DNA of 64,000 nt, from positions 4,810 through 68,809 of the forward strand of contig JACRBZ010000078.1 of NCBI GenBank assembly GCA_016219185.1, read 5' to 3'. Below the pieces are notes generated by a model that was given only the letters and a program-made list of their open reading frames with translations, was not told the origin of the DNA and did no database searches. Below, one piece after another: positions 674 to 25,910 of the stretch. The stretch's first letter is position 1; each line of letters starts with the position of its first letter. Source of the DNA: Deltaproteobacteria bacterium. Its GTDB lineage: Bacteria > Desulfobacterota > Desulfobacteria > Desulfobacterales > Desulfatirhabdiaceae. The position numbers and the translations under genes are program-made.

Positions 674-697
674 ATTGATATTCTCCTTGCTTTAATT

Positions 698-5771: not shown

Positions 5772-6917
5772 ATGCTGGAAAAAGGGGCATTAACCGGAAT
5801 TACCGTACTGGATATCTCAAGACTTCTGCCAGGACCTTATGGTTCGATGATCTTGGCGGATCATGGCGCACGGGTGATTTCCATAGAAGACAAGCGCTTT
5901 ATCGCCGATGGTTTTATCACAACCGTAAACCGGAACAAAGAACACCTTTCACTGGATTTAAAAACCCCCGAGGGAAAGGAGATTTTCTTTCGCCTTGTGA
6001 AAACCGCGGATGTCGTGATGGAAGGATTCCGCCCGGGTGTCGTACAGCGTCTGGGTGTTGATTATGAAACGGTTTGCAAGGTCAATCCTGGCATCATTTA
6101 CTGTTCCATAACCGGCTATGGCCAGACAGGCCCTTACGTGAATCGGGTCGGCCATGATGTCAATTATCTGAGTGCTGCGGGAATCCTCGATTTAATCGGT
6201 GCGCCGGATTCTCCTCCCGCCATTCCCGGCGTTCAATTGGCGGACGTTGCAGGTGGCGGGATGAATGCTGTTATCGGCATTCTGCTTGCACTCATTGCCA
6301 GGAATCAGACCGGCATGGGCCAGTACATTGATATTTCCATGACCGACGGCCTGTTGGGGTTTCTTTCCATTCCGCTTTACTTTCATCAAATGACCCGCCA
6401 GCTCCCCACACGCTCGGATGCCGTGCTATCTCACAGATATGCCTGTTACAATACCTATGAAACCGCAGACGGCCGGTCTCTATCCATTGGCGCCGTTGAA
6501 CACCGCTTCTGGAAAAAACTTTGCGAGCATCTTGAACTAACGGAATTCAGCGACCTGCAGTATGACGACAGCAGACGACTGGAAATCATCGACATTCTGC
6601 GCTCTGTTTTTCGCCAGAAGACCCTCGAAAGGTGGGACAGCGAGCTCGGAGATCTGGATATCTGCTGGGGAAAGGTTCAGAACCTCGAAGAAGTGCTGAA
6701 GGACCCCTTATTCAGGGAAAGGGAAATGGTTGTTGACCTTGAGGGAAAGAACGGGAAAACAATGCCGGTTATTGGTATTCCTGTCAAGCTGAGCCGAACG
6801 CCGGGGAAGGTGCGCATACCGGCCGTCGGTTTTGGAGAAAGCACAGTTCCCATTTTACGGGAAATCGGATATCCAGAAGAAGATATTGCCGTGTTTCAGA
6901 AAAAAGGAATCGTATAA
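5772..6917 (+). CDS. Family III CoA-transferase fold protein, alpha-methylacyl-CoA racemase-like
   Basis: LTGITVLDISRLLPGPYGSMILADHGARVI N-terminus, and GYGQTGPYVNRVGHDVNYLSAAG, which resembles the AMACR/MCR GHDINYLALSG catalytic-His segment. Confidence 0.75.
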   Translation: MLEKGALTGITVLDISRLLPGPYGSMILADHGARVISIEDKRFIADGFITTVNRNKEHLSLDLKTPEGKEIFFRLVKTADVVMEGFRPGVVQRLGVDYETVCKVNPGIIYCSITGYGQTGPYVNRVGHDVNYLSAAGILDLIGAPDSPPAIPGVQLADVAGGGMNAVIGILLALIARNQTGMGQYIDISMTDGLLGFLSIPLYFHQMTRQLPTRSDAVLSHRYACYNTYETADGRSLSIGAVEHRFWKKLCEHLELTEFSDLQYDDSRRLEIIDILRSVFRQKTLERWDSELGDLDICWGKVQNLEEVLKDPLFREREMVVDLEGKNGKTMPVIGIPVKLSRTPGKVRIPAVGFGESTVPILREIGYPEEDIAVFQKKGIV

Positions 6918-8160: not shown

Positions 8161-8265
8161 CAGGAACCCGTAGCTGCCAGCCTTTCCGTCAGATTGTCAT
8201 CATAGCAACTCGCCTATTTTTTTACATATGAGCGCATATTATGATTTTGGAACAAGGGATGTTTC

Positions 8266-8925: not shown

Positions 8926-9094
8926 CTTATCATGTACCGGAACAAACAAGATTCACAGGTCTGTGTTTTGTGTATTGAGGTATAAAAAGATGGTATGACG
9001 ACTCGAATTGGTATTATTACCCCTGTTTTTTTGTTATCAGGCTTGAAAACCATTAATAAATATTAATCTAACGGGCAGTTAGGGAGAATGATGA

Positions 9095-9916: not shown

Positions 9917-10010
9917 AATTAACCGGATATCACCGAAATGGATATTTATATGAATATGATCTATTTTCATCCTTCGATGTGCCCGCACCGAGCATGGCAG
10001 TTAGTCTTAA

Positions 10011-10050
10011 AATCGGACATTATTTTAATAAAATGCCATTTTGTCCGATT
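10011..10050. repeat. 9-bp perfect inverted repeat downstream of the PP-loop gene
   Basis: AATCGGACA (10011-10019) and TGTCCGATT (10042-10050), with a 22-nt AT-rich loop. Confidence 0.5.
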
Positions 10051-10455
10051 GTTCTGATTCAATTAATATCCGTAGAATGATCTGCGGTAATTTGTATGAA
10101 TAATTCTTATTTAATTTCCGCTCAGAACATCATGAAATATATCTATAAATTTAATCTTATAGATATACCCTTTATCATTTGTTCCCCTTAATTTCAATCT
10201 TGGCACAATATTTGTAATCTTTAACCAGGTAATTACCATGCTTCGTTGTGTTCGCAATCACGAGCAGTTCGGGATAGCCGTGCAAAATTAGTCTCAGAAA
10301 CAAAAGTAGCCGAAAGAAAGTAACTTTTTTCTACGGAAACGGTTTGAGATGCGGGTAAGGTGCCGGAGAGACTCGATGGTCGGTAATATAGCCTTCAACA
10401 GAAAAGTTTTTTAGACAACCTTTCTAATATCTTTAAATGACGAAAGGAGGTTTTT

Positions 10456-11493
10456 ATGAAGATCAACAATGGTTTTAAATTTTGGTGGCTGTCATTCTTA
10501 CTGACTTATAGTCTCTGCTTTTCATTGAACGTTTACCAGACAGATGCCGCGTCGCAGAGTGACAAGCCCGAATTCGTGTTCAGGTTTGCTGGGAATATGC
10601 CGGTTGGCCACTACATCACTAAAACACAGGAACTTTATGCCCGTCTTGTAGAAGAGAGAACCGGAGGAAAAGTGAAACTGGAAATATATCCGGCGGGTCA
10701 ATTGTTCAGCGACAAAGATCTGCCCAGAGCTTTGCCTTCCGGAGCGGTGGACATGGCCCAGGTAACAGCCGGGGTATGGACGGGCCTGATTCCCCCCTTG
10801 TCTATTATCGAGCTGCCTTATTTCTTTAAAGATCATGACCATCTGTATCGGGCGATAGATTCTTTGCAGTTCAGGCAGCTACTAGAAGCGGAATTTGAAA
10901 AGAAAGGGGTGAAACTGCTTTTTTGGATGGACTGGGGAACTGCAACATTTATTGGGAGAAAGCCGTTAAGGACCCTTGAGGATTTTAAGGGCAAGAGGCT
11001 CCGAGGACACGGAGAGACTCAAACAGAACTTATGGAGGCATTGGGAGCGGCTCCTGTGTTCATGGGTGCTGGAGAGCTTTATCTTGCATTGCAAAGAGGG
11101 ACCATTGACGGGCTACTCACAACAACCTGCTCGGTTTGGGACAGGAAGCTCTACGAGGTGGCTCGCTATTATACACATATCCCAATCGGGGATGTAACTT
11201 CACTGCCCGCAGTATTGGTAAATTTAGAAAAATGGAAGGATTTGCCCGCCGATTATCAAGGAGTCATGAGCGTTGCTGCCAAAGAGGCCCAGGAATGGGG
11301 ATATAACCAGGCGCGCGAGTCTTCGGAAGGATGTTTGCGGGGGCTCAAGGAGAAAGGGATGGAAATCTACTATCTGCCCGACAAGGAAAGGCAGAGATGG
11401 TCCGATTCTTGCCGGCCCATCCTGTTTCGATACATCGAACGAACCGGGGCAACGGGCAAAGCCTTGGTGGAGGAAGCGGAAAAGGCCCGCTAG
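10456..11493 (+). CDS. TRAP transporter substrate-binding protein (DctP family)
   Basis: Signal peptide followed by a DctP-like body (FRFAGNMPVGHYITK, LRGHGETQTELMEALGAAPV). AGGAGG RBS. The permease gene is adjacent. Confidence 0.85.
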   Translation: MKINNGFKFWWLSFLLTYSLCFSLNVYQTDAASQSDKPEFVFRFAGNMPVGHYITKTQELYARLVEERTGGKVKLEIYPAGQLFSDKDLPRALPSGAVDMAQVTAGVWTGLIPPLSIIELPYFFKDHDHLYRAIDSLQFRQLLEAEFEKKGVKLLFWMDWGTATFIGRKPLRTLEDFKGKRLRGHGETQTELMEALGAAPVFMGAGELYLALQRGTIDGLLTTTCSVWDRKLYEVARYYTHIPIGDVTSLPAVLVNLEKWKDLPADYQGVMSVAAKEAQEWGYNQARESSEGCLRGLKEKGMEIYYLPDKERQRWSDSCRPILFRYIERTGATGKALVEEAEKAR

Positions 11494-11511
11494 ATTTTAG
11501 GGAAACTATAG

Positions 11512-13419
11512 ATGAATAATTTGGATAGATCCGAGTCGCTCTTCGATCGAGTGATTTTCGGGAGCGCCCTGGGGGGCGGGATCCTGATCCTGCTCACCGC
11601 GCTCTTTGTCACCTATGAAGTGATTTTGCGATACTTTTTCAACTCGCCAACGACATGGGTGTTGGAAGTCAGTATTTATACGATTTTGGCTTCTACTTTT
11701 CTCTCCTTCGCTTACATTCTCAAGAATAATGGACATATAAGGGTTGATTTCGTCACCAATCATCTTTCCGGAAGGACTGCGCTTATCCTGGAGATATTTA
11801 CTTCCCTGTTAAGTATCCTCTACTGTCTGGTTATGACTTGGGAGGGGGGGAAGATGGCTTTTATATCCTACCAGAGCGGGGAGGTTTCTCCGACGGTTTT
11901 ACGGATTCCCTTGTTCATTCCCCTGTTCTTCGTTCCCTTGGGGGGGATTCTTCTTACCATTCAATTTATCCGGCTTGTAAAGAAGCTATTCAATAATTTA
12001 ACCTCTGCCGAATTTGCCGGAGAAGGAGAGAGGGTATTGAGGCAGCCTGCACAGGGGCCCCTCTTTTCCCAGATGCTGGTCACAGGCATCTTCGCTGTAT
12101 TGCTCGTCGTTAGTTTGATACTCCTTAAGGTATCTATGAATCTTGGACTTTTGACCCTCTTTTTTGTCCTTTTGCTGAGTGGCCTTCCGGTGGCCGTCGC
12201 CCTGGGCCTTTTTGGGGTTTTCGGGTTTTATTTCCTTTTTGGCGGCGCTTCCATGCTGGTGCAAATCCCGGTTGTTGCCTATTCCACTATGGACAATTTC
12301 GTCATTGTCGCCCTGCCCCTCTTCATCCTGACGGCCTCAGTTCTTCGAATCGGCGGGGTGGCTCCCAAGCTTTTTAAGTTTGCCTATGTCCTGGTGCGCC
12401 ATCTGCCTGGAGGGATGGGAATCGCCGCGGTGATCTTTTGCGGGTTATTTGCGGCCATGACCGGATCCAGCGTGGCGGTGGCAGCGGCCGCGAGCATGAT
12501 TGCCTTGCCGGAGTTGCTTTCCCGGGGATACGATCGCAAGCTGGCCATTGGTTTGCTGGCTGCAGGAGGAACACTGGGCATTCTCTTTCCGCCCAGTTTG
12601 GCCCTGATCCTTTATGGGGTCATGACCAACGAATCGGTTGGCTCTTTATTCCTGGCCAGCCTGATCCCCGGATTGCTTTTGTCCGTGATGTTCTGCCTCT
12701 ATGTAGCCGTGGTCGCCGGCTGGGATAATAATATCCAGCGCGAACCCAGAGCGAGTTGTCAAGAGATCCTGGGGGGGGCCAGGGGAGCTGCCGGCGGGTT
12801 GTTTACCATACTCATCATCATCGGAGGCATCTACTCGGGAATTTTTACTCCGACCGAGGCAGGGGGTGTGGCGGGTATTTACGGTCTCATCCTCTGCTGC
12901 TTCATCTCCCGCACCGTTTCCTGGGAAGGTCTGAAGAAAATCCTCCTGGATGCCACCATGCTCTCATCGATGATCCTTTTGATCATTATCGGAGCCAACA
13001 TCACCGGCCAGATGATTCTTATGGCTCAGATCACTCAGAACATTCTGGCCTTTGTCAAGGCTCTGGATGTTCCGCCCTGGGTAGTCATCCTGAGCATCAA
13101 CATCTTCTTGATCATAATGGGCATGCCCCTGGAAGCCGTTTCCATCATGGTCATAACCCTGCCCTTACTCTACCCCCTGGTTACTGAACTCGGGTTCAGC
13201 GGGTTATGGTTTGCGGTCGTCATGGTGATCAATATGGAGCTAGCCCTGATCTCTCCGCCTGAAGGTATAAATCTCTTTATCATACAGACCGTCGCAAAAT
13301 CCACGAGCAGCGAAGTCTCCCGGGGCGTGTTTCCCTTCCTGATCATCATGCTCCTTTTCCTGGTCTTGGTCTCGTTTGTGCCCGGCCTGACGAACTGGTT
13401 GCCGGCTTTGATGAAGTGA
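11512..13419 (+). CDS. TRAP transporter fused small/large permease (DctQ-DctM)
   Basis: 635 aa and polytopic. The N-terminal ~160 aa are DctQ-like, followed by a linker and a DctM-like domain (GLPVAVALGL, AAMTGSSVAVAAA). Confidence 0.85.
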   Translation: MNNLDRSESLFDRVIFGSALGGGILILLTALFVTYEVILRYFFNSPTTWVLEVSIYTILASTFLSFAYILKNNGHIRVDFVTNHLSGRTALILEIFTSLLSILYCLVMTWEGGKMAFISYQSGEVSPTVLRIPLFIPLFFVPLGGILLTIQFIRLVKKLFNNLTSAEFAGEGERVLRQPAQGPLFSQMLVTGIFAVLLVVSLILLKVSMNLGLLTLFFVLLLSGLPVAVALGLFGVFGFYFLFGGASMLVQIPVVAYSTMDNFVIVALPLFILTASVLRIGGVAPKLFKFAYVLVRHLPGGMGIAAVIFCGLFAAMTGSSVAVAAAASMIALPELLSRGYDRKLAIGLLAAGGTLGILFPPSLALILYGVMTNESVGSLFLASLIPGLLLSVMFCLYVAVVAGWDNNIQREPRASCQEILGGARGAAGGLFTILIIIGGIYSGIFTPTEAGGVAGIYGLILCCFISRTVSWEGLKKILLDATMLSSMILLIIIGANITGQMILMAQITQNILAFVKALDVPPWVVILSINIFLIIMGMPLEAVSIMVITLPLLYPLVTELGFSGLWFAVVMVINMELALISPPEGINLFIIQTVAKSTSSEVSRGVFPFLIIMLLFLVLVSFVPGLTNWLPALMK

Positions 13420-13551: not shown

Positions 13552-15099
13552 ATGAAATGGAATATCGGTAAAATTACATCAAAACGGGCGACCGCGACAC
13601 CCGACAAAACGGCATTTGTTTTTGAAGATATAAATATAACCTATGGGTATCTGAATGAGGAAACCAATCGTGTCGCCAATTATTTTCTTTCCAAGGGACT
13701 AAAAAAAGGCGATCGTATTTCAGTGCTTCTGGCCAATTGCCCCGAGTTTATGGCCATCTATCTGGCCGCTGCTAAAATCGGCCTTATTTTTGTGCCATTG
13801 AACGTTCGCATGGTATCCGGGGAGATCAAATATCAGCTCAATGACTGCGGTTCCCGTTTGCTTGTTTTTCATGATGCGTTTGCCGGTAATGTTGAGCCGC
13901 TCCGTTCTTCGGTACAAGTGGAAGAGGGTAAATATCTCTGGTTGAAAATCGGCGTCCCCGGTTTTCCGGACTGTCCGGAGTGGTCTGTTGATTATCATCA
14001 GGTAATTGATGAAAATTCAACAGACGAACCGACGGTGAATGAGTCCATCGATATGGATGATCCACTGGCTATCATTTACACATCAGGCGTTACAGGCAAC
14101 CCAAAAGGAGCTGTTCTTTCCCACGGCCAGACATATTTTAAGAATTTTCAGATGATAATGTATACGGACATGTCTGCAGACGATATTTTCTTGTCACAAC
14201 TGCCACTGTTTCATTCCGGTGGTCTGTTTATCATCGCCACGCCGGTTTTATGTCGAGGTGCGTCATTTATCATGAGACTCAAGTTTGAGCCGGAACAGTT
14301 TGCCAAAGATATCGAAAAATACAAACCCACGGTGATTTTTGCCCTGACCACCATGTGGCGCCTGATCCTGCAGTCAAAGGCGCTCGATAATATCGATGTC
14401 AGAAGTGTTAAATATATTTTGGGTGGAGGCGAACGGACACCTATCAGCCTGCTTAAGGAATTGGCCGAAAAAGGATTATACATGCAGCAGGGTTTTGGCC
14501 AAACAGAAAACTCAGCCATGATGATTCTGCCAAAAAAAGACATCATCAGAAAAGAAGGGTCCATCGGGTTACCGGGTTTTTTTACGGAAATCTGGATACA
14601 GGATATAGACGGAAACAGGACCCCGCCCGGTGAAATCGGAGAAATTGTGGCCACCGGGCCTACCGTGATGAGTGGTTATTGGAATTTACCCGATAAAACA
14701 AAAGAAACGATAGTCGATGGCGTCCTGCACACCGGCGATCTTGGCTACATGGATGGAGACGGTTATTTTTACATCGTCGACAGGGCCAAAGATATGTATC
14801 GTAGCGGTGGTGAGAATGTGTACCCGGCACAGATCGAAAAAATACTGATCGATCACCCGAAAATTGAAAATGTATCCATCATCGGGGTCCCAGATGACAA
14901 ATGGGGTGAAGTAGGGAAAGCCTTTATTGTATGTACTAAAGGTGAGAGCATAACCAAAGAAGAAGTTCATGAGTATCTCAGTGGAAAGATCGCCAAATAC
15001 AAGTTTCCGGCTCATATTGAAATGATCGATGACCTTCCAATGACTGCAACCGGAAAAATTAAAAAAGCAGAGTTGAAAAAGACAAACCGACTTGAATAG
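13552..15099 (+). CDS. AMP-dependent acyl-CoA synthetase/ligase
   Basis: AMP-binding motif IIYTSGVTGNPKGAVLSH, plus GYWN, TGDLGYMDGDGYFYIVDRAKD and a terminal GKIKK. Confidence 0.85.
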   Translation: MKWNIGKITSKRATATPDKTAFVFEDINITYGYLNEETNRVANYFLSKGLKKGDRISVLLANCPEFMAIYLAAAKIGLIFVPLNVRMVSGEIKYQLNDCGSRLLVFHDAFAGNVEPLRSSVQVEEGKYLWLKIGVPGFPDCPEWSVDYHQVIDENSTDEPTVNESIDMDDPLAIIYTSGVTGNPKGAVLSHGQTYFKNFQMIMYTDMSADDIFLSQLPLFHSGGLFIIATPVLCRGASFIMRLKFEPEQFAKDIEKYKPTVIFALTTMWRLILQSKALDNIDVRSVKYILGGGERTPISLLKELAEKGLYMQQGFGQTENSAMMILPKKDIIRKEGSIGLPGFFTEIWIQDIDGNRTPPGEIGEIVATGPTVMSGYWNLPDKTKETIVDGVLHTGDLGYMDGDGYFYIVDRAKDMYRSGGENVYPAQIEKILIDHPKIENVSIIGVPDDKWGEVGKAFIVCTKGESITKEEVHEYLSGKIAKYKFPAHIEMIDDLPMTATGKIKKAELKKTNRLE

Positions 15100-15311: not shown

Positions 15312-17057
15312 ATGGATGAGAATAACGACAAAATAGGACTGGCCAGTCAACAGTGGCAGGAAAAAGTGGTTTCACCGCATCTTAATAAATTTGGCCTTAC
15401 AAAAAGTCCAACACGGTTTTATACACCTGCAGATATTAACGGTTACGACTTTCTCGAAAAAGTAGGTTTTCCCGGCCTATATCCATTTACCGCAGGCAAC
15501 GATCCGGTGCCCAAGTGGCAGGCGTTTGCAGAGAAGCTGGCAAAGGCGGAAACCCGGTTCGAGTGGGGTTCAAGCGGAGCAGGTAAATACGCTGGTTTCG
15601 GAACGGCCGAAGATTATCGGGATTATCTGATCCGAATGCATTCAATGGGACGAAAGGGCGCTCCGAACATGGCAATGGATCTTCCGACACAATGCGGTTA
15701 TGATTCTGACGATTCATGGGCGGAGGGTGAAGTCGGCCGGGTTGGCGTGGCGGTAGATTCCTTAAAGGATTTTGAAATTATTTATGAGCCTTACACCGGC
15801 GACCTGGACCTGGATAAAATTGCATCGAACTTTACTATTAACGCGCCATCGGCGGTTATTATCGCCATGTACGCGGCGTTGGCAGAACAGCGCAGTATTC
15901 CGCTCGCCAAACTAAGAGGTACGCCCCAAAACGACATCTTAAAAGAGTACGTGGGCCGGGGCACCTATATATACCCTCCCAAACAATCTTTGAGGCTTTT
16001 TCGTGACATCCTCTCCTTTTGTACCGAACACATGCCAAAATTTAACATTACCAGTATTGGTGGGTATCATATGCGTGAAGCCGGCGCAACCAGGGTTCAG
16101 GATCTTGCTTTCAGCATGGCGATCGGGGCCACCTATCTTCAGGCCGGAATTGATGCGGGTTTTGACATTGATAGGTTTGCGCCCCGTTTTACTTTTAACG
16201 CGTTTGGAGGAAGCATGGAATTCTATAAGGAAATCGCCTTCCAGCGTGCTGCCCGGAGAATGTGGGCGCGCATGCTGAAAGAACGCTTTAAAGCAAAAAA
16301 TCCAAAAAGCATGCTGATCAGGCAGATTTCCACAGCACATATAGGATGCATCAGCACAACCTTGCAGCGCCCGTTGACCAATTTGATTCGCGCAGTTGTT
16401 GGAGGGATGGCGGCTGGCATGTCCGGAGGTATTCCCGGCATATATCCCCCGTTCGATGAACCAATGGGACTGGGCCATAGCCTTGAGGCCCAGCAGTTAT
16501 CTCATGATGGAACACGAGTTTTAATATATGAAGCCAAGGTGGGTGAAACATTAGACCCTTGGGCCGGTTCCTATTTTATGGAATCGCTGACGGATGAAAT
16601 CGAATCCGAGGCACAGGCGGAATTAAACAAAATAGAGCAGATGGGGGGGGCGATCGGCGCCATTGAAAACGGTTATATGCAGAGAGCCGTTGCCAAAAGC
16701 GCCTATGAAAGACAGAAGAAGATTGAAAATAAGGAAGAATTTGTAGTTGGCGTAAATTGTTTCACAGGGCCCGATGAGATAGATGTTAAGATCAATCGTA
16801 GTGTTGAAGAAGTTTATTCGGCAGATATGATGGCAAGCGCGGAGCAGCGTCAAAAAGAGAACCTGATACGTCTTAAAAGTGATCGAGATAACCGTCTGGT
16901 TGCCCAGAATCTCAAAAAGTTGAAACAGAACGCTGCAGATGAATCGGTCAATTTGATGCCTGACATTCTCTCATGCGTCAAGAGTTATGCAACATTGCAG
17001 GAAATTTGTGATGTGCTCAGAGTTGTTTTTGGTGAAGCGAAGCCCTCATTGAATTGA
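15312..17057 (+). CDS. Coenzyme-B12-dependent acyl-CoA mutase, large (substrate-binding TIM-barrel) subunit, divergent
   Basis: YAGFGTAED, DLPTQCGYDSD, GTPQNDILKEYVGRGTYIYPP and GGYHMREAGAT are methylmalonyl-CoA-mutase-family motifs. There is no C-terminal B12 domain. Confidence 0.85.
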   Translation: MDENNDKIGLASQQWQEKVVSPHLNKFGLTKSPTRFYTPADINGYDFLEKVGFPGLYPFTAGNDPVPKWQAFAEKLAKAETRFEWGSSGAGKYAGFGTAEDYRDYLIRMHSMGRKGAPNMAMDLPTQCGYDSDDSWAEGEVGRVGVAVDSLKDFEIIYEPYTGDLDLDKIASNFTINAPSAVIIAMYAALAEQRSIPLAKLRGTPQNDILKEYVGRGTYIYPPKQSLRLFRDILSFCTEHMPKFNITSIGGYHMREAGATRVQDLAFSMAIGATYLQAGIDAGFDIDRFAPRFTFNAFGGSMEFYKEIAFQRAARRMWARMLKERFKAKNPKSMLIRQISTAHIGCISTTLQRPLTNLIRAVVGGMAAGMSGGIPGIYPPFDEPMGLGHSLEAQQLSHDGTRVLIYEAKVGETLDPWAGSYFMESLTDEIESEAQAELNKIEQMGGAIGAIENGYMQRAVAKSAYERQKKIENKEEFVVGVNCFTGPDEIDVKINRSVEEVYSADMMASAEQRQKENLIRLKSDRDNRLVAQNLKKLKQNAADESVNLMPDILSCVKSYATLQEICDVLRVVFGEAKPSLN

Positions 17058-17236: not shown

Positions 17237-18586
17237 ATGGAATTAAAACCTATCGAATTGACCAAAATATTAGCCCGTTTTATTGCCGGAACAGGGAAAT
17301 CTGATATCCCTCTTCATGTTTTTGATCATGCCAAGGTCGCATTTAAGGATTGGCTTGGCGTGACCTTTGCCGGAAAAGAAGATCCGTTGGTAAAGAAATT
17401 GATTAAATATGCAGATATGATGGGTGGAAATAAACAGTCGACCCTGTTGGGATATGGCATGAGAAAATCAGCATGCCAGGCAGCTTTAATCAATGGATCA
17501 GCATCTCATGTCCTTGACTATGATGATACACTTGAGCATTTTCTGGGGCACCCATCCGTAACTATATTCCCGTCTATTCTTGCACTTTCTGAATGGATGG
17601 GTAAATCCGGTACCGATTTTCTTCTTTCTTACCTTATCGGCCTTAAAGTGGGGGCTGTTATCGGGGCGTGCGCTGGACTAGACCACTACATGACAGGCTG
17701 TCATCCTACCTCCACCATCGGGCATTTTGCTTCTGCCGCTTCCTCTGCGAAATTACTGGGATTAGATGAGAAACAGACGCTTAACGCCTTGGGAGTTGCC
17801 GGAACTCAGGCTTCAGGGCTGAAAAGTTCTTTCGGCACAATGAGCAAAGCATTTCATGCCGGCAAAGCTTCCCAGGCCGGACTTATTGCCGCACTGCTTG
17901 CCGGAGATGGTTTCACAGGCGCCGAAGACATAATTGAAGGCGCGCATGGTTTTTTCAAGGTGTTCAAAGGAACCGTGAATGAAGATGTTGTAAATACGAT
18001 AGGCAAAACATGGGAGATTGAAAATTTGGCTCAGAAATACCACGCCTCCTGCCATGCCACCCATTCTCCCATCGAAGCAGCCCGGTCCATCATTCTGAAA
18101 GAAGGAATAAAACCAAATGCTGTCAAGTCAATCCGGGTTTTCTCCTCCGAACTGGCGCTTTCAGCCGCAAGCAAGATGGAAGCAAGTACAGGCTTGGAAG
18201 GGAAATTCTGCATATCTTATTGTGTGGCCAATGCAATTCTCAGGGAAAACACCGGGATGCAGGCATTTACCGATGAAAAGATCAATGACCCGGAAGTAAA
18301 GGCTTTTATGAAAAAAATAACGGCCAATCCCACACAGGATTTCAAGACCCTGGAAGCAAGAGTTGAAATCGAAACGGATTCAGGAAAAACCTATACCGCT
18401 GTTTCAGATATTTTAAAGCTCATACCGGAACTTACAGAAAAAAAGGCTAAAATCTCAGCTAAATTTGTAGACCTGTGCACACCCGTACTTGGTAGTCAGG
18501 CAACAGCGGCACTTGAAGCATCTGTTGATTCCTTAGAAAATATTGACAACATGCAAACATCCTTTGTGCTGCCACAAAACCAATAG
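17237..18586 (+). CDS. MmgE/PrpD family protein (2-methylcitrate dehydratase-like fold)
   Basis: 449 aa. FKDWLGVTFAG, GSASHVLDYDDT, TIGHFASAA and KAFHAGKASQAG are typical MmgE/PrpD segments. Confidence 0.8.
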   Translation: MELKPIELTKILARFIAGTGKSDIPLHVFDHAKVAFKDWLGVTFAGKEDPLVKKLIKYADMMGGNKQSTLLGYGMRKSACQAALINGSASHVLDYDDTLEHFLGHPSVTIFPSILALSEWMGKSGTDFLLSYLIGLKVGAVIGACAGLDHYMTGCHPTSTIGHFASAASSAKLLGLDEKQTLNALGVAGTQASGLKSSFGTMSKAFHAGKASQAGLIAALLAGDGFTGAEDIIEGAHGFFKVFKGTVNEDVVNTIGKTWEIENLAQKYHASCHATHSPIEAARSIILKEGIKPNAVKSIRVFSSELALSAASKMEASTGLEGKFCISYCVANAILRENTGMQAFTDEKINDPEVKAFMKKITANPTQDFKTLEARVEIETDSGKTYTAVSDILKLIPELTEKKAKISAKFVDLCTPVLGSQATAALEASVDSLENIDNMQTSFVLPQNQ

Positions 18587-18695: not shown

Positions 18696-19889
18696 ATGTC
18701 AGAAAAATATGTCATTGTCAGCGCCAAAAGATCCCCTTTTGGCAAATACCTCGGTTCACTTTCAGAAATGGAGCCTATTGATGTGGCTGTTCATGTTGCA
18801 AACGCCACAATTGAGGCTGCAGGAAATAATATTAAAAAGGAAATCGATCAGATTTTTGTGGGAAACTGCATGCCGGGTTCCTTTGAGATCGGTTCGGTGA
18901 CGGGCCGGCAGATTTGTCTAAAACTTGGTCTTGATGTATTTACAACTACGATAGATACGGCCTGCTGCTCGCCCCTTACTGCGCTTCGTATGGCTCTCTG
19001 GGGCCTTCGTCTGGGCGAAATTGAGTCTGCGCTTGTAATCGGTATCGAGGCCATGAGCAGGGTGCCCCATCAGTCGCGTCAAATTAGGAATGGTGTCAGA
19101 ATAGGTGAACTGAAGATGCCCGACCCGATATTTCCCATCATGTATCCTGGCTACCATTCAGTGGCTGTTGATGCTTCCGATGGAGCTGCAAAATATAATA
19201 TTTCTAAAAGAATGCTGGATAACTTTGCAATGGGCTCCCATTTGAAATGGGCAGAAGCAATGAAAGCCGGAAAATTTGAGGATGAAATCGTTCCCATACC
19301 TGTTAAAAAAGGAAGAGAAAAATATCTTTTTACAACGGATGAAATGCCGCGTCCCGGTGGAAGTGTCGGGGCTCTCGAAATGCTTCCGCCGGTATTTGGG
19401 GCTAAGACCACTACGGCCGGGAATGCTCCCGGGTTAAATGACGGAGCGTCCGCCATGGTGGTTATGACCGAAAAAAAAGCAAAGGCACTTGGCCTTACTA
19501 TTCTTGGTAATATCGTTGATCAGGTTGGGCGAACTGACATGCCTTACGGAATATCATGGATTCCCGCATTCGCCATTAACAAATTGTTGGAAAGAACAAA
19601 AATGGGCATCGATGATATAAGTCTGATCGAAATCAATGAGGCCTTTGCCGCAATGCCCTTGGTCAGCACCAAAGTACTGGCTGAAAATAATGAAAAAAAG
19701 TGGCATGAATTGATAGAGAAAACCAATGTGAATGGTGGCGCAATCGCTATCGGACATCCGGTAGGGGCTTCCGGCCTTAGAATCACCATGGCGATGATGT
19801 ACGAACTTCGGCGAAGAGGCGGCGGTTTCGCCGTGGCCGCCATATGCGGAGGTTTAACTCAGGGCGAAGCGATCATGGTTCAAGTGTGA
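18696..19889 (+). CDS. Thiolase (acetyl-CoA C-acyltransferase family)
   Basis: Active-site Cys region IDTACCSPLTAL, plus NVNGGAIAIGHPVGASGLRI and AAICGGLTQGEA near the C-terminus. Confidence 0.9.
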   Translation: MSEKYVIVSAKRSPFGKYLGSLSEMEPIDVAVHVANATIEAAGNNIKKEIDQIFVGNCMPGSFEIGSVTGRQICLKLGLDVFTTTIDTACCSPLTALRMALWGLRLGEIESALVIGIEAMSRVPHQSRQIRNGVRIGELKMPDPIFPIMYPGYHSVAVDASDGAAKYNISKRMLDNFAMGSHLKWAEAMKAGKFEDEIVPIPVKKGREKYLFTTDEMPRPGGSVGALEMLPPVFGAKTTTAGNAPGLNDGASAMVVMTEKKAKALGLTILGNIVDQVGRTDMPYGISWIPAFAINKLLERTKMGIDDISLIEINEAFAAMPLVSTKVLAENNEKKWHELIEKTNVNGGAIAIGHPVGASGLRITMAMMYELRRRGGGFAVAAICGGLTQGEAIMVQV

Positions 19890-19937
19890 AGTCTTTTGTG
19901 AACAGAATAATCCATTTAGATTTTAGGAGGTAAAAAA

Positions 19938-22031
19938 ATGTCCGAAGTTATATACCGGCTTGATCCCAAAAAGAATATAGCAGCATTTCTAATAGATACT
20001 GCAGGACCAGTCAACACCATTGGTGATCAGTTCATCAAAGACTTTGCGGTTGCCACTGAAAGGGCAAACCGTGATAATGTCCGAGGCGTTATTTTAGCGT
20101 CTCTTAAAAAAAAGAGTTTTTTAGATGGCGCCAACCTCATGGAAATTCTGAAAGATGCGTCATCTCTGAACTTGAAATATACCGTATTGAAGCTTCAGGA
20201 AGTGCTTGCATCCCTTGCCAGGAGCCCATTCCCTGTTGTTGCGGTTCTTACCGGCCAGACCGCCTTGGGAGGTGGTTTTGAGACGCTTTTGTGGACCTGT
20301 GATCATATCTTTGCCTCTCCGGGCACAAAAATGGGATTGCCGGAAGTCAACATCGGCCTTTTTCCCGCAGCCGGCGGCCCTGAAACCTTAAGAAGAGTAA
20401 TCGGACTTGAAAAAGCCATCGAGGTTGTCATGCGTGGGCAGGTACTTCCGGCCGAAGCATACGCAGATTCTGGTTTAGTTACAATTACCACTGGAAAAGA
20501 CATTCAAAACAAAGCTGAACAATGGATAGAATCCCACCTGGATATAGTCAATAGGAACTATGATCCCAAGTGGAAGGAACCCTTAAAACCGACTGGGAAG
20601 GTTCAGGAATCGTTAATTAAAAAAGCTCGGGACCGGTTTACCGTGTGTCTGGAAAAACCCTATTTTAAGGCGGCTATTGACGCCATTGAAGAAGGGCTTG
20701 ATTTACCTTTTGAAGAAGCTGCTAAAAACGAAGTAAAGCATTTTGCATGGCTTATTGAGCATCCCAATGTAAAAAATAAGATTGATTTGTTTTTTCTAAC
20801 GACAAGCATAGCTTCGAAATTGTCCGGTGTTAATGTTCAAAAGGCTATTCCCGTACCTAACTTGGCAATCATCGGCGCCGGTCTGATGGGGCAAGGTATT
20901 GCCCAGGTTTGTGCAGATAAAGGTATAAAAGTTCTTCTTATTGACATCGACATAAAAACCGCTGAAGCCGCAAAAGTGAATATCGGTAAAGGTCTGGACC
21001 CTCTGGTAAAAAAGGGGAGCTGGACACTGGAACGAAAAAACATGGTTATGGATAATATATGTTTATCCGATAATTATAGTGGTTTGAAAACGGTTCCATT
21101 AGTTATCGAGGCTGTTTTTGAAGATCTTGATTTGAAAAGGAAAATTCTCAAGCAGGTTCAGGAAATCAATCCGGATATCGTCTTTGCGTCCAATACGTCT
21201 ACCATACCCATGCAGGAAATCGCCGGCGAATCTCTTCGTCCGGAAATGGTTGTGGGAATGCATTACTTTTCCCCGGTTCCTTTAATGCCTCTTTTGGAGA
21301 TTATTCAAGGGCCGCAAACTTCTGAGAGTTCTCTCGCAACCGCTGTTGTCTCCGGCAGGCAACAGGGGAAAACCTGTGTCATTGTTGGAGATGGCCCCGG
21401 TTTTTATACCAGCAGAACATTCGGTGTCTATGTTATGACCGGTTTTTACCTCGCGGAAATGGGGGTTGACCCCTGGGAAATTGACAAGTTGGCCCTTGAG
21501 GCCGGTTTCCCCCAGGGCCCATTGAATGTTTACGGGACAGCAGGCGGGAATGTCATTTATCATGCTGGTTTGTATATGCAATCGAATAAGCCGGGGCTGA
21601 TAACAGTGCCGAAAACACTGATTAAAATGTATGAGGCCGGTTATGTGGGCGCCGGAAAGCCCTGTTTTTACGGCCCCGACATGAAACCGGACCAATCAGC
21701 AATAAAATTTGTTATTCGCAATGAATCCCTGCCGACTCCAACCCGTGAAGAAGTTAAAGAAATGCTTCTGCTCGCAATGGTCAATCAGGCGTTTCACTGC
21801 CTGGATGAGGGGGTTGTTAAAAACTATTACAGCATGGACATGGCTTCTGTATTAGGCATTGGTTTTCCTGACTGCTGGCATGGTCCCGGTCGCTACGTCA
21901 GCCAGAAAGGGGTTAAATTTACCCTTGGGCGTTTACAGGAATTCCATGACAAATACGGACTGGAATTCTTCAGGCCTGCCAGAGAGTTTAACAGGTTGAT
22001 TGCCTGCGGAGTTGATAGCGGTCTCGTATAG
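19938..22031 (+). CDS. Bifunctional enoyl-CoA hydratase / 3-hydroxyacyl-CoA dehydrogenase (FadB/FadJ-like)
   Basis: N-terminal crotonase fold (LTGQTALGGGFETLLWCD-like), central NAD fold LAIIGAGLMGQGIAQV, HFFSPVPLMPLLEI motif, 697 aa. Confidence 0.85.
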   Translation: MSEVIYRLDPKKNIAAFLIDTAGPVNTIGDQFIKDFAVATERANRDNVRGVILASLKKKSFLDGANLMEILKDASSLNLKYTVLKLQEVLASLARSPFPVVAVLTGQTALGGGFETLLWTCDHIFASPGTKMGLPEVNIGLFPAAGGPETLRRVIGLEKAIEVVMRGQVLPAEAYADSGLVTITTGKDIQNKAEQWIESHLDIVNRNYDPKWKEPLKPTGKVQESLIKKARDRFTVCLEKPYFKAAIDAIEEGLDLPFEEAAKNEVKHFAWLIEHPNVKNKIDLFFLTTSIASKLSGVNVQKAIPVPNLAIIGAGLMGQGIAQVCADKGIKVLLIDIDIKTAEAAKVNIGKGLDPLVKKGSWTLERKNMVMDNICLSDNYSGLKTVPLVIEAVFEDLDLKRKILKQVQEINPDIVFASNTSTIPMQEIAGESLRPEMVVGMHYFSPVPLMPLLEIIQGPQTSESSLATAVVSGRQQGKTCVIVGDGPGFYTSRTFGVYVMTGFYLAEMGVDPWEIDKLALEAGFPQGPLNVYGTAGGNVIYHAGLYMQSNKPGLITVPKTLIKMYEAGYVGAGKPCFYGPDMKPDQSAIKFVIRNESLPTPTREEVKEMLLLAMVNQAFHCLDEGVVKNYYSMDMASVLGIGFPDCWHGPGRYVSQKGVKFTLGRLQEFHDKYGLEFFRPAREFNRLIACGVDSGLV

Positions 22032-22218: not shown

Positions 22219-22617
22219 ATGAATACGGGAAAAAAAATTAGAGTGTTGATTGCAAAGCCGGGTCTGGATGGCCATGAGCGTGGCGCTAGAGTTATTGCCT
22301 ATGGTCTGAGGGATCTGGGGTTTGAGGTTATTTATACAGGTCTGAGACAGAAACCGGAAGAAATTGCGAGCGCTGCCGTTCAGGAAGATGTTAATGTGGT
22401 GGGCCTTTCTATTTTATCAGGGGCACATCTGTCTCTGACGCGCAAGGTCATCGAAAAACTAAGAGAACAAAACGCAACTGATATCCTGGTCATTGTCGGG
22501 GGAGTTATCCCTGATCAGGATGTTCCTGAATTAAAAAAAATGGGTGTCAGCGGAGTGTTTACTTCAGGCTCTTCCATAAAAGAGATAGGGGCATTTATCA
22601 ATTCCAGTTTGCCGTAA
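22219..22617 (+). CDS. Acyl-CoA mutase small subunit (cobalamin-binding domain)
   Basis: DxHxxG motif (LDGHERGA), LSILSGAH and VIVGGVIP, typical of the B12-binding Rossmann domain. 132 aa. GGGAGG RBS. Confidence 0.85.
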   Translation: MNTGKKIRVLIAKPGLDGHERGARVIAYGLRDLGFEVIYTGLRQKPEEIASAAVQEDVNVVGLSILSGAHLSLTRKVIEKLREQNATDILVIVGGVIPDQDVPELKKMGVSGVFTSGSSIKEIGAFINSSLP

Positions 22618-22650
22618 AGATTATTTTAGCCAGGCTTTTAGGTGATAAAT

Positions 22651-23598
22651 ATGGTAAAAAGTCGAATAGTAGAGATTACCGGGACCAGATATCCATTTAT
22701 TTTAGGTCCCATGCGACTGATCACGCTTGGTGAAATGGCGGCAGCCGTATCAAACAGCGGCGGATTCGGCCAGATTGCCGCCTCCGGCCTCTCATCTGAC
22801 CGGTTACTCCTGGAAATAAAAAAAGCCAGGGATCTGACCGATCAACCATTCGGAATCAATATTCTCATCTATCGTCCAAACGCCTTCGAAGCCCTCGAAA
22901 TAGCAATTGACGCAGGGATTAAAACCATTACAACATCTGCGGGAAATCCGGCGAAGTTAATTGGGCGTATCAAGGATGCAGGTTTAAAAGTACTGCATAA
23001 AGTTTCCTCCGTAGAAATGGCGCTGAAGTCTCAATCCTGTGGCGTTGATGGTGTTATTGCCACTGGATTTGAGGCTGCTGGTCATGTAGGCCGTCATGGA
23101 ACGACGACCATGTGCCTGGTGCCCCAGTTGGCGGACGCCTTAAAGGTGCCGGTGGTAGCGGCAGGAGGGATTGCAGACGCCAGAGGGCTTGTTGCCGCAT
23201 TTGCGTTGGGCGCTGAAGGAGTTGAACTGGGAACGCGGTTTATTGCCACCCATGAATGCCCGACCCCTGATTTTTACAAGCAGCTTATCGTGCGTGCTGA
23301 TAGTGATGCCACAATCCTTCTTGGAAAAGATGCCATGCCTATACGAGTGTTAAAAAACCTTGCAGTAGAGATGATTCAGAATCCGGACAAGACAATTGAG
23401 GATAAGCACCTTAACAGTAAAAATGCAGAAGCTGTATATATACACTTCGGAGGCGATGCGGATACCGCGATTATGCCGTCCGGGCAAATCGCCGGCCTGA
23501 TAAAACAGATTGAAAGTATTGGAAAAGTTTTCCCGGAACTAATGAAGGGCGCTATTTTATTAGCGCAACAACTGGAATCGACATTTGGGGGTGAATGA
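22651..23598 (+). CDS. FMN-dependent NPD-family oxidoreductase (nitronate monooxygenase / FabK-like enoyl reductase family)
   Basis: YPFILGPM, GFGQIAA, ATGFEAGHVG and VVAAGGIADARG motifs. Start moved to ATG 22651, after AGGTGA. Confidence 0.7.
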   Translation: MVKSRIVEITGTRYPFILGPMRLITLGEMAAAVSNSGGFGQIAASGLSSDRLLLEIKKARDLTDQPFGINILIYRPNAFEALEIAIDAGIKTITTSAGNPAKLIGRIKDAGLKVLHKVSSVEMALKSQSCGVDGVIATGFEAAGHVGRHGTTTMCLVPQLADALKVPVVAAGGIADARGLVAAFALGAEGVELGTRFIATHECPTPDFYKQLIVRADSDATILLGKDAMPIRVLKNLAVEMIQNPDKTIEDKHLNSKNAEAVYIHFGGDADTAIMPSGQIAGLIKQIESIGKVFPELMKGAILLAQQLESTFGGE

Positions 23599-24389
23599 TG
23601 CAGTGGGAGCATGTACTTTTGGACAAGAAAGATATGATCGCCTGGGTCACTCTGAATCGGCCGGAGAAATTGAACGCTTTCGGCGGCCGGATGCGCCAGG
23701 AACTCGTTGAAGTAATTGATGATGTTTGCGCTGATCCGGAAGTCAGGGTTATAGTCATCACCGGCTCCGGGAAGGCCTTTTGCGTCGGGGGTGATGTCAC
23801 GGAGTTCGTTTCCGGCCAAACCAAGGCCCTCACGGAAACTTCTCCCAGTGAACGTCCAGCCATGGCAAAAATTGTTTTGGCCTTGAACCAGGTTGAAAAA
23901 CCGGTGATCGCTGCGGTAAATGGTGTGGCGGCAGGTGGCGGCGTCAACCTGGCCCTGGCTTGTGATATTCGAATCGCCAGTGAAAAAGCCCGGTTTGGAC
24001 AGGTGTTCACACGGCGCGGCGTTCACCCGGATTGGGGCGGTATTTATTTTTTACCCCGACTTGTGGGTTATGCCAAGGCCTGTGAACTGATTTTTTCAGG
24101 TGACGTCATCGACGCCCAAGAAGCCTATAAACTCGGCATGGTGAACACTCTCGTACCCCACGAAAAACTTATGGAAGCCACCACTGAAATGGCCAGAAGA
24201 ATCGCAGACAATGCTCCCATACCGATTGCATATGCCAAAAGAGGCTTGCAGAATTTTTATAAGTGGGATTTGGCCCAGGCCCTGGATTATGAATCCTATG
24301 TGCTGAGCGTTACCATGAAAAGCGAAGACTTCAAAGAAGGATTCACGGCGTTTCTGGAGAAAAGAGAACCTGCTTTCAAGGGCAGGTAA
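23595..24389 (+). CDS. Enoyl-CoA hydratase/isomerase family protein
   Basis: IAWVTLNRPEKLNAF, ITGSGKAFCVGGD and AAVNGVAAGGGVNLALACD motifs. ATGA start/stop overlap with the upstream gene. Confidence 0.85.
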   Translation: MMQWEHVLLDKKDMIAWVTLNRPEKLNAFGGRMRQELVEVIDDVCADPEVRVIVITGSGKAFCVGGDVTEFVSGQTKALTETSPSERPAMAKIVLALNQVEKPVIAAVNGVAAGGGVNLALACDIRIASEKARFGQVFTRRGVHPDWGGIYFLPRLVGYAKACELIFSGDVIDAQEAYKLGMVNTLVPHEKLMEATTEMARRIADNAPIPIAYAKRGLQNFYKWDLAQALDYESYVLSVTMKSEDFKEGFTAFLEKREPAFKGR

Positions 24390-24526: not shown

Positions 24527-25489
24527 ATGCTGGAAGATTGGGAAAGTCTGATAGCCGAAATGAGAAAAGGATCGGTTCGGGCCCTGGCACGACTGATTAC
24601 CCGGATTGAGAATCGGGAATCGGGATGGATGGATGCAATGCAAATGATTTATTCTATGACCGGCAAGGCGCGCGTTATCGGAATCACAGGCGCGCCTGGC
24701 TCAGGGAAAAGCACCCTTACGGACCGATTGGCACGCGAGCTGTTTAACAGGGGCTTTAAAATCGGGATCATTGCCGTGGATCCGTCAAGCCCGTTTTCCG
24801 GAGGCGCTCTGTTGGGGGACCGCTTGCGTATGAAAGAAGTAAGCACCCTTCACGATGTATTCATCCGTTCCATGGCCACCCGAGGAGCTTTAGGCGGGTT
24901 GAACCTGTCAGCCCGGGATGTAGTTAAAATTCTGGACGCCTTCGGCAAGGACGTTATTCTTATTGAAACCGTCGGAGTTGGACAGGACGAGATTGAGGTA
25001 GTGAAGACGGCCGACATGGTGCTGGTGGTCTGCGTTCCTGGGATGGGTGACGGTATTCAGGCGATTAAGGCCGGGATAATGGAAATTGCCGACATTTTTA
25101 TCGTTAATAAGGCTGATCTCGACGGGACAGATCAAGTTGTCGCAGATATACGCGCCATGCTGGACCTCTCGGCAGATGAAATTTCATCGCAAACCCCGGT
25201 ACTTAAAACGATCGCCTCAACCGGCGAAGGTGTTGTAGATCTGGTCACCATGATGCTTGTAAATTTTGAAGCGGGGCGGATAAGAGTCTCCTGGAGTGAG
25301 GAACGTGCGAAAGAAGAAATCTTGTCACTTTTAGAGAAAGAGATCTCTCGTAATCTACAAGGCAGATGGGCTCGAAACGGCAATCTGACTGAAGCAGTAA
25401 AACAGGTGATAGCCCATGAACGAGATCCCTATTCTATTGTACAGGAGATGATGATGCCACTATTGCAGTTTAATTACTCAGACAGATAA
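24527..25489 (+). CDS. meaB: MeaB/ArgK-type G-protein chaperone of B12 mutases
   Basis: P-loop GITGAPGSGKSTL, SGGALLGDR, ETVGVGQDE and NKADL motifs. 320 aa. Confidence 0.85.
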   Translation: MLEDWESLIAEMRKGSVRALARLITRIENRESGWMDAMQMIYSMTGKARVIGITGAPGSGKSTLTDRLARELFNRGFKIGIIAVDPSSPFSGGALLGDRLRMKEVSTLHDVFIRSMATRGALGGLNLSARDVVKILDAFGKDVILIETVGVGQDEIEVVKTADMVLVVCVPGMGDGIQAIKAGIMEIADIFIVNKADLDGTDQVVADIRAMLDLSADEISSQTPVLKTIASTGEGVVDLVTMMLVNFEAGRIRVSWSEERAKEEILSLLEKEISRNLQGRWARNGNLTEAVKQVIAHERDPYSIVQEMMMPLLQFNYSDR

Positions 25490-25548: not shown

Positions 25549-25610
25549 TTAAACTGCAGTTACGGTAATTTATTTTGCGTCGGCATCACTGTAAAATCAG
25601 GAGATGTTTT

Positions 25611-25910
25611 ATGATACGTTTGCTTAAGGCTTTTTTTTCAGCCATGCTTTTGTTCAATGCAATACCTCACATAGTTCAGGGAATATGTGGTGAATCGCAC
25701 ATGACCCCATTTGGGGCCAGTTCAGCTCCGGCGGTTAATGTGATCTGGGCGTGGGTTAACCTGCTTATCGGTGGATGGTTATTAAAATTGTCGCAGCCGA
25801 AAGAGTGGACCCCACATTTCTGGCTTGCCTTTTGTCTGGGGGGGTTTATTATATCCCTTTCTCTGGCCATTTTTTGGAGTAACCCCCATGCCAGACTGCC
25901 TTGGCAGTAA
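25611..25910 (+). CDS. Small integral membrane protein (about 3 TM), function unknown
   Basis: Hydrophobic 99-aa ORF. Start chosen at MIRLL, after AGGAGA. Confidence 0.5.
   Translation: MIRLLKAFFSAMLLFNAIPHIVQGICGESHMTPFGASSAPAVNVIWAWVNLLIGGWLLKLSQPKEWTPHFWLAFCLGGFIISLSLAIFWSNPHARLPWQ

Follow-up and report, generated by a model that had tools for sequence, protein, structure and literature searches.

We analyzed a 64,000-nucleotide stretch of DNA (hereafter the window) from a Deltaproteobacteria bacterium of the Desulfatirhabdiaceae (assembly GCA_016219185.1, contig JACRBZ010000078.1, forward-strand positions 4,810 to 68,809), in which an operon encodes the large subunit of an adenosylcobalamin (AdoCbl)-dependent acyl-CoA mutase. 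The protein, annotated publicly as methylmalonyl-CoA mutase (MCM), belongs to a distinct clade, and its activity is predicted. An N-terminal segment running into barrel strand beta-1 has been replaced, and, as judged by alignment, the full carboxylate-type catalytic set of MCM, specificity tyrosine included, is kept. Together with the B12-binding subunit and the chaperone MeaB encoded downstream, it probably forms an AdoCbl-dependent mutase of this clade with alkyl-substituted succinyl-CoA esters as physiological substrates. The reaction would be 2-(1-methylalkyl)succinyl-CoA <-> (2-methylalkyl)malonyl-CoA, the carbon-skeleton rearrangement of fumarate-addition anaerobic alkane degradation.

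The mutase is a superfamily member outside the MCM equivalog

The open reading frame (ORF) begins with ATG and encodes 581 residues, and its translation contains YPFTAGNDPVPKWQAFAEKLAKAETRFEWGSSGAGKYAGFGTAEDY, NDILKEYVGRGTYIYPP and GYHMREAG, the strings given for it in a preliminary description of this DNA. The protein matched PF01642 (MM_CoA_mutase) over its full length (E 1e-138, 463.6 bits against a threshold of 22.1) and passed the superfamily model TIGR00641 with 483 bits against a cut-off of 303.8, and it failed the NCBIfam equivalog for MCM, NF006944, with 397.8 bits against a cut-off of 876. Among solved structures, human MCM was the best match in the PDB by sequence (320 bits), with 2-hydroxyisobutyryl-CoA mutase (HCM) at about equal distance (312 bits). 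HMMER alignments with MCM began only at residue 91, directly after the odd segment described below, and the HCM alignment crossed this segment with three gaps. The AlphaFold2 (AF2) model of the large subunit (pLDDT 83, pTM 0.88) had the mutase fold, and Foldseek returned HCM, MCM and IcmF with E values of ~1e-18 or lower, with TM-scores of 0.77/0.80 to HCM 4r3u and ~0.75 to MCMs.

Of the marks of the superfamily, the domain model, the barrel fold, a B12 subunit with the DxHxxG motif and an associated MeaB were found, and the AdoCbl-dependent 1,2-rearrangement is predicted. From MCM proper (EC 5.4.99.2) the protein has the Tyr89/Arg207/His244 triad and lacks both the NF006944 match and the RGxYxTMY....WTxRQ stretch. 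The pattern of isobutyryl-CoA mutase (ICM), HCM and pivalyl-CoA mutase, with Tyr89 replaced by Phe or Ile and Arg207 by Gln, is also absent, the residues being Tyr and Arg.

The N-terminal segment is rebuilt and conserved

In place of the 18 canonical residues "RGxYxTMYxxxxWTxRQ" the protein has 33 unrelated ones. The preliminary description had counted about 15 extra residues, an Ala in place of the Arg of RG and the loss of TMY...WTxRQ, and it was correct on all three points. Ala61 occupies the position of the Arg, and the spacer from PF[T] to the Tyr of YAGF spans 32-36 residues in 120 clade members as against 17 residues in 54 of 58 canonical mutases. The segment contains a short amphipathic helix (W69-A79) followed by a Gly/Ser-rich stretch that runs into strand beta-1. 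The AF2 model placed helices at 68-71 and 73-78 (pLDDT ~87), and residues 81-90 had a pLDDT of ~61. Residues P58, G62, W69, G86, Y93 and G95 were invariant across 78/78 aligned homologues. Because the segment is conserved in homologues from independent assemblies, it is neither chance nor an assembly artefact, and a frameshift or misassembly as its origin was ruled out on this ground.

Two observations had been named in advance as fatal to a rebuilt pocket, namely an insertion outside the active-site barrel and a demonstrated MCM with the same segment. The replaced stretch takes in the start of the beta-1 strand that carries Tyr89, and no demonstrated MCM with this segment was found. In the P. 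shermanii MCM structures of Mancia and colleagues from 1996 and 1999, Tyr75, Thr77, Met78, Arg82, Thr85 and Arg87 are said to touch the CoA ester where it passes through the channel of the barrel. In our alignment G86, Gly/Ser89 and Gly91 of the query sit at the positions of Arg82, Thr85 and Arg87, and such an exchange of inward-pointing Thr and Arg for Gly and Ser would widen the channel.

The carboxylate-type catalytic set is kept

Residues were mapped onto P. shermanii MCM (Table 1). Wild-type MCM in 1req and the variant described as Y89F in 5req read Y and F, respectively, in RQ[Y/F]AGF, which aligned to Y93 of the query in GKYAGF, and Tyr89 is therefore the Y of RQYAGF. Thus, the claim of the preliminary description that the pocket strand is rebuilt stands, but the specificity tyrosine was not lost with it. 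Its two other assignments, retention of the Arg207 and His244 equivalents, were borne out by the alignment to P. shermanii MCM as R216 and, in GYHMREAG, as H253, which follows Y252. Further equivalences were T204/Q206 to Thr195/Gln197 and R292 to Arg283. All of these residues (Y93, R216, Y252, H253, T204, Q206 and R292) were invariant or nearly so in the 78 aligned homologues, with Y93, R216 and H253 invariant throughout. In contrast, ICM and HCM carry Phe or Ile where MCM has Tyr89, and Gln where it has Arg207, as seen in HCM 4r3u and the ICM-like P0125. A mutase of the acetone/2-hydroxyisobutyrate type, as in Desulfococcus biacutus, was ruled out, as Arg207 and Tyr89 are kept.

Besides the N-terminal segment, the clade differs from canonical mutases in three to four rebuilt loops on the catalytic side of the barrel (Table 1), and its conserved substitutions and indels fall in four barrel regions. 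The residues G386, L387, G388, H389 and S390 of the third and fourth loops are clade-invariant, and another conserved difference is the change from PRLSFFF to PRFTFNAF (+1 residue). The strongly conserved rebuilding of both segment and loops implies selection for a different pocket, and an alkyl chain would gain room both from the lost inward-pointing side chains and from the new loops. A reaction of the ethylmalonyl-CoA mutase kind, but on a larger substituent, would explain why Tyr89, Arg207 and His244 are kept and the channel and pocket are remodelled.

Table 1 Features in and around the mutase operon, with residue numbers of the query and the P. shermanii MCM equivalents.
Feature	Position	Strand	Basis
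Carboxyltransferase, N-terminal part, cut by the window edge	2..691	-	63% identity over 224 aa to D. naphthae ass-linked locus
Row of FKBP-type isomerase, enoyl-CoA hydratase, TPR, DUF4037, NAD-epimerase/dehydratase and DUF4125 genes	698-5149	-	Pfam
Family III CoA-transferase / alpha-methylacyl-CoA racemase-like protein, upstream of operon	5772..6917	+	PF02515; alpha-methylacyl-CoA racemases E 6e-57
TetR-family regulator, upstream of operon; also in locus L004	8266..8925	+	Family match
TRAP transporter: DctP solute-binding protein (10456-11493), fused DctQM (11512-13419)	10456..13419	+	PF03480, PF04290, PF06808
AMP-forming acyl-CoA ligase; proposed AssK-like activation of substituted succinate	13552..15099	+	PF00501, PF13193
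Mutase large (substrate-binding, TIM-barrel) subunit, AdoCbl-dependent acyl-CoA mutase	15312..17057	+	PF01642, TIGR00641, AF2 model, Foldseek
Rebuilt segment, residues A61-K92 (AGNDPVPKWQAFAEKLAKAETRFEWGSSGAGK), replacing RGxYxTMYxxxxWTxRQ, +15 residues	15492..15587	+	Alignments, conservation, AF2
Tyr93 = MCM Tyr89, retained, clade-invariant	15588..15590	+	1req/5req alignment, conservation
Arg216 = MCM carboxylate-binding Arg207, clade-invariant	15957..15959	+	Alignment, conservation
Tyr252-His253 = MCM Tyr243-His244	16065..16070	+	Alignment, conservation
Second rebuilt loop IRQISTAHIGC, residues 336-346, replacing (L)RFHTQTSG, +2 residues	16317..16349	+	Alignment
Third and fourth rebuilt loops: SGGIPGIYPPFDEP replacing GGTQSLHTNxxDEA; GLGHSLE replacing ALP-TE (+1)	16422..16484	+	Alignment
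MmgE/PrpD-family protein, candidate alkylsuccinate epimerase	17237..18586	+	Pfam
Thiolase (18696-19889) and fused enoyl-CoA hydratase/3-hydroxyacyl-CoA dehydrogenase, FadJ-like (19938-22031)	18696..22031	+	Profile matches
Small B12-binding subunit, 132 aa, His-on DxHxxG motif DGHERG (D17-G-H19-E-R-G22)	22219..22617	+	PF02310, TIGR00640
FabK/NMO-like FMN protein (22642-23598) and enoyl-CoA hydratase (23595-24389), overlapping stop/start	22642..24389	+	Family matches
MeaB G-protein chaperone	24527..25489	+	PF03308; TIGR00750, 295 bits vs 240.75
Small hydrophobic protein after MeaB	25575..25910	+	Homology only

The clade is large and discrete

The segment was present in 120/120 of the best-matching 90%-identity protein clusters (at least 67% identity to the query), so that the clade comprises at least 120 such clusters. 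All named ones are from Desulfobacterota: Desulfosarcina, Desulfatiglans, Desulfomonile, Syntrophobacterales and Desulfothermus naphthae. In a library of 50%-identity representatives the scores dropped in steps from 756 through 533 and 451 to 387 bits, the last being the level of the canonical mutases, which start at ~41% identity. A tblastn search of 72,556 plasmids returned nothing above ~41% identity to the query. The clade can be recognized by three signatures, PFTAGN...W...WG..G.GKY(A/G)GFGT.EDYRDYL, IRQ..TAH.GC and PP(F/Y)DEPLGLGHS.

RG/TMY/WTxRQ is likewise missing from sister lineages (46-62% identity), which retain the Tyr and whose inserts are long and variable. Within a sister superclade (loci L011, L012, L015, L021 and L098-L116; 49-62% identity) the inserts end in ...RAxxYSGYGTxEDTRDYY, and the loci often have a family III CoA-transferase, a PrpD-like gene and a TRAP (tripartite ATP-independent periplasmic) transporter. 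One of them, L110, adjoins a divergent AssA-like enzyme of 50% identity. These enzymes may be mutases for other substituted succinates.

Most clade loci lie near alkylsuccinate synthase or activase genes and nearly all have a PrpD-like gene

Two scans contributed loci. A scan of genome contigs with a 115-residue clade alignment, which drew on patterns common to all mutases (GEVG[RK]VGVA, TQCGYDSD), gave at least three clade loci and ~70 canonical MCM loci (71 counted) that served as the control set. A scan of metagenome contigs with the segment alone gave at least 36 relatives and ~7 clade members. The clade sample consisted of 15 loci with at least 9 kb of context. These numbers and the locus counts below hold among the matches listed.

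A MasD/AssA-type glycyl-radical enzyme and/or its activase was encoded within 10 kb of the mutase in 9/15 clade loci, whereas AssA, activase and PrpD were found in 0 of the 71 canonical loci, many of which have MeaB and a carboxyltransferase. In three of the nine (L002 from Desulfothermus naphthae, L005 and L126) the glycyl-radical enzyme system lies a few kb downstream of the mutase module. The other six (L008 from Desulfatibacillaceae, L087, L088, L092, L094 and L127) have one gene row in the order B12 subunit, mutase, (MeaB), PrpD, activase, BssC-like small subunit and AssA. The glycyl-radical enzyme of L087 is of the MasD type: it scored 1463 bits with the solved MasD structure 9o8u and 502 bits with benzylsuccinate synthase. 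An MmgE/PrpD gene was present in 14/15 clade loci (including L002, L005, L006, L008, L087-L089, L092, L093 and L126-L128). The preliminary description had proposed a CoA ester with a free carboxylate and a bulkier substituent as the substrate; this proposal gains support from two independent lines, the intact triad and the linkage of orthologues to MasD/AssA. Alkylsuccinyl-CoA was among the substrates that it had listed for assay.

These data bear on the public annotation, that is, an ordinary MCM interconverting succinyl-CoA and methylmalonyl-CoA with neutral, lineage-specific variation at its N-terminus. Conservation of Tyr89, Arg207 and His244 speaks for this annotation, MeaB and a carboxyltransferase are encoded nearby as at many canonical MCM loci, and the alkane pathway itself needs an MCM to regenerate fumarate from propionyl-CoA. 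However, the protein fell far short of the NF006944 equivalog (398 bits against 876), and the rebuilt form of its segment and of four further loops is strongly conserved. Moreover, PrpD and AssA are absent from all 71 canonical loci and nearly always present in clade loci, and an operon led by a transporter and a CoA ligase, with beta-oxidation genes, misfits an MCM of central metabolism. We therefore regard an ordinary MCM as very unlikely.

The window operon matches the modules of ass-linked loci

The operon runs, in order, from TetR through TRAP DctP and DctQM, the AMP-forming ligase, the mutase, the PrpD-like protein, thiolase, hydratase/dehydrogenase, B12 subunit, FabK/NMO-like protein, hydratase and MeaB to a small membrane protein. 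The two partner genes of the preliminary description, a B12 small subunit with DGHERG at 22219 and MeaB at 24527, are thus real. A close relative has a 93%-identical operon (L004). There, a CobA/CobO-type cob(I)alamin adenosyltransferase gene (19123-19662 of that locus) lies between the hydratase and MeaB, where the window has a 137-bp gap.

Relative to the ass-linked loci, the ligase, PrpD-like protein, NMO-like protein, enoyl-CoA hydratase, MeaB, B12 subunit, 99-aa protein and carboxyltransferase of the window were 55-75% identical to their counterparts. Individually, the ligase was 59-70% identical to those of L002, L005, L087, L088, L126 and L127, the B12 subunit 66-75% identical to small subunits beside clade mutases in ass-linked loci, and the FabK/NMO-like and hydratase pair 55-67% and 68-75% identical, respectively, to the pairs in L002, L005, L087, L089 and L126. 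The small hydrophobic protein was 58-65% identical to an ORF of 99-101 residues that follows MeaB in L002, L005 and L126; its 99-aa homologue in L002 has no Pfam family on record. The published alkane pathway offers no role for an enzyme like the FMN enoyl-reductase-like one.

The nearest solved relatives of DctP were TRAP dicarboxylate-binding proteins (~1e-32). For the PrpD-like protein the best solved relative was iminodisuccinate epimerase, which acts on a substituted succinate (E 2.5e-55), and the equivalog for 2-methylcitrate dehydratase was failed with 42 bits against 575. This partner is a candidate for the epimerase that stereochemical work on the alkane pathway requires.

The carboxyltransferase cut by the window edge sits at the end of the divergent minus-strand row of Table 1. 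This row may belong to the same catabolic island; its FKBP/DUF4037/hydratase set recurs beside the ass operon in L087, and FKBP also in L127. The window thus contains the other downstream enzymes expected of an alkylsuccinyl-CoA route, namely ligase, carboxyltransferase, a protein resembling alpha-methylacyl-CoA racemase, the PrpD-like protein, thiolase and the FadJ-like protein. From these genes, the TRAP system would take up the substrate, and the neighboring ligase would activate it. Epimerization by the PrpD-like and/or the racemase-like protein could follow, and then rearrangement by the mutase, decarboxylation or transcarboxylation by the window-edge carboxyltransferase, and beta-oxidation. 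Uptake of a substituted succinate is the simplest reading of the TRAP-led operon.

Several findings weigh against an alkylsuccinyl-CoA mutase. The window copy is linked to a TRAP transporter and not to ass genes, and a blastp search with labelled reference proteins found no ass or mas genes and no glycyl-radical enzyme in the 64-kb window. The operon has no acyl-CoA dehydrogenase, and its carboxyltransferase lies in a separate, divergent row. In three clade loci (L006, L090 and L093) both the glycyl-radical enzyme and the TRAP system are missing, and AF2 confidence is lowest exactly in the rebuilt loops (pLDDT 51-62).

The TRAP linkage and the missing ass genes would also suit a mutase for other imported C4/C5 dicarboxyl-CoA esters, short or otherwise substituted, of the methylsuccinyl- or ethylmalonyl-CoA type or derived from itaconate, mesaconate or citramalate, with the TRAP-linked copies unrelated to hydrocarbons. 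PrpD-family enzymes do act on small di- and tricarboxylates (iminodisuccinate, cis-aconitate), and the TRAP systems that accompany clade mutases (window, L089 and L128) come from at least two lineages unrelated to each other (25-28% identity), with more beside sister-clade mutases in L098, L107 and L108. We nevertheless consider this alternative unlikely. The whole module is orthologous, at 55-75% identity, to that of the ass-linked loci, and in a neighbor-joining tree the window fell in a subclade in which TRAP-linked (window, L004, L089, L128) and ass-linked loci (L002, L005, L126) are interleaved rather than forming separate functional lineages. The alternative also overlaps with an alkylsuccinyl-CoA mutase, as products of short-chain alkanes such as (1-methylethyl)- and (1-methylpropyl)succinates would be 'short' substrates of the same reaction.

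Locus L128 has both a TRAP system and, at the contig edge, a fragment of a glycyl-radical enzyme. At 4735-10213 it carries tandem genes for mutase large subunits that are 47% identical, one a clade member and the other of a sister lineage with a different insert, with a B12 subunit and a PrpD-like gene between them and then MeaB and the TRAP system.

Comparison with characterized and proposed mutases

MCM (P. shermanii MutB, human MMUT; 1req, 4req, 2xiq) shares with the query the fold, the catalytic residues, His-on B12 binding, MeaB and, as proposed here, a carboxylate-bearing CoA ester as substrate. The query differs in its identity of only 29-34%, a separate B12 polypeptide, the replaced stretch (+15 residues) and the rebuilt loops, and in the genome the clade is accompanied by ass/mas genes together with genes for a PrpD-like protein and a ligase, in place of the propionate-pathway set of MCM. 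HcmAB (4r3u), ICM and IcmF resemble the query in their split large and small subunits and separate MeaB, and HCM is the closest structural match. Unlike the query, they have Ile or Phe and Gln at the specificity positions and substrates without a carboxylate, and HCM keeps RGPYPTMY...WTMRQ.

By reaction, the proposed enzyme compares with ethylmalonyl-CoA mutase (Ecm) of Rhodobacter sphaeroides (Erb et al. 2008, as cited in PMC8360864). Its reaction, alkylmalonyl-CoA <-> 2-alkylsuccinyl-CoA with the carboxylate retained, is formally the same as that proposed here, and the substituent is borne by the carbon from which the thioester group departs or to which it is added. In Ecm this substituent is a methyl group; in the clade it would be a branched alkyl chain of C3 to ~C16, which would make the reaction a long-chain counterpart of ethylmalonyl-CoA <-> methylsuccinyl-CoA.

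IaaGH of Aromatoleum aromaticum, the proposed phenylsuccinyl-CoA/benzylmalonyl-CoA mutase of anaerobic indoleacetate degradation (PMC8360864), is, like the window mutase as proposed here, a B12 mutase assigned to a bulky substituted succinyl-CoA in a catabolic operon with an uptake binding protein. Indoleacetate degradation relies on a CoA-transferase together with an acyl-CoA dehydrogenase of the decarboxylating type, whereas the window has an AMP-forming ligase and a carboxyltransferase. By this analogy, IaaGH appears to be a precedent rather than a match. It does raise the alternative of an analogous mutase for aryl- or cycloalkyl-succinyl-CoA, acting on imported aromatic or alicyclic succinates. 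Its precedent is that a bulky substituted succinyl-CoA has been proposed as a mutase substrate following binding-protein-dependent uptake (PMC8360864), and the sister-clade locus L015 combines a mutase, a family III CoA-transferase and an acyl-CoA dehydrogenase in the manner of iaaL, iaaGH and iaaF. Yet no hydantoinase-like or acyl-CoA dehydrogenase gene was found among the window ORFs scanned, and the glycyl-radical enzymes that accompany the orthologues are of the MasD type, not the benzylsuccinate synthase type, so that we consider a substrate of this kind highly improbable.

The carbon-skeleton rearrangement of (1-methylalkyl)succinyl-CoA was postulated from metabolites (Wilkes et al. 2002, as cited in PMC4402382). 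Schemes of anaerobic alkane degradation all include it. Genomic studies of alkane degradation give this step to any methylmalonyl-CoA mutase homologue ('Mcm/mcmLS/mcmA'), and some call the genes unclear (PMC8163825, PMC6776118, PMC9576796, PMC5606693, PMC7701123). In the literature searched, the clade, its signature and its PrpD-like partner were described nowhere, with a prior mention in the papers on AK-01, HxN1 or BuS5 being possible. The kind of enzyme, a B12 acyl-CoA mutase, and the pathway step were already known, and the dedicated clade, its signature and the PrpD partnership appear to be new.

Regulatory signals and other parts of the window

An Rfam scan turned up neither a cobalamin riboswitch nor any further regulatory RNA in the vicinity of the operon. 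Between 8 and 27 kb, promoter-like sites numbered 44 against 30.8 expected from shuffled sequence and terminator-like sites 21 against 19.6, and no specific regulatory site was found.

On the minus strand, positions 32496-38992 carry genes similar to those of the futalosine route to menaquinone, one VitK2_biosynth/MqnA-like, one for an amidohydrolase and two for radical SAM proteins of the CofH/MqnC type, with a GC content of ~0.54 compared with ~0.45 in the mutase operon. Among these genes sits a group II intron (35905-37679, plus strand), which was recognized by an Rfam D1-D4 domain (127 bits) and contains a reverse-transcriptase/maturase ORF at 36351-37679. A 651-aa ORF on the opposite strand over the intron (35859-37814) lacked a Pfam match and is probably spurious. 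At 39151-42684 (minus strand), next to a tRNA gene (42602-42684), lie a RhuM-family gene and the gene of a type I restriction-modification methylase (HsdM), which may form a small mobile or defence island.

Implications for anaerobic alkane degradation

For metagenomes of oil reservoirs, seeps and contaminated aquifers, the signature of the ass-associated clade would be a better marker than generic mcm. In B12 enzymology, the enzyme would, if the proposed reaction is correct, represent a sixth substrate class of acyl-CoA mutases, in which the MCM barrel has been widened for a long alkyl group and the carboxylate-handling triad kept. Such an enzyme has potential use in engineering branched-chain dicarboxylate and fatty-acid chemistry.

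With the TRAP-linked form, cross-feeding on alkylsuccinates becomes conceivable. More tentatively, and with less confidence than in the mutase assignment, the window could be a self-contained alkylsuccinate-scavenging operon whose owner lives on (1-methylalkyl)succinates set free by neighbors that activate alkanes, and does not activate alkanes itself; the mutase would then be the long-sought carbon-skeleton mutase of the pathway and the PrpD-like protein the missing epimerase. If this scavenging proposal holds, the downstream half of the anaerobic alkane pathway would gain sequence markers, and alkylsuccinates, instead of being dead-end 'signature metabolites', would be a public good shared by cross-feeding.

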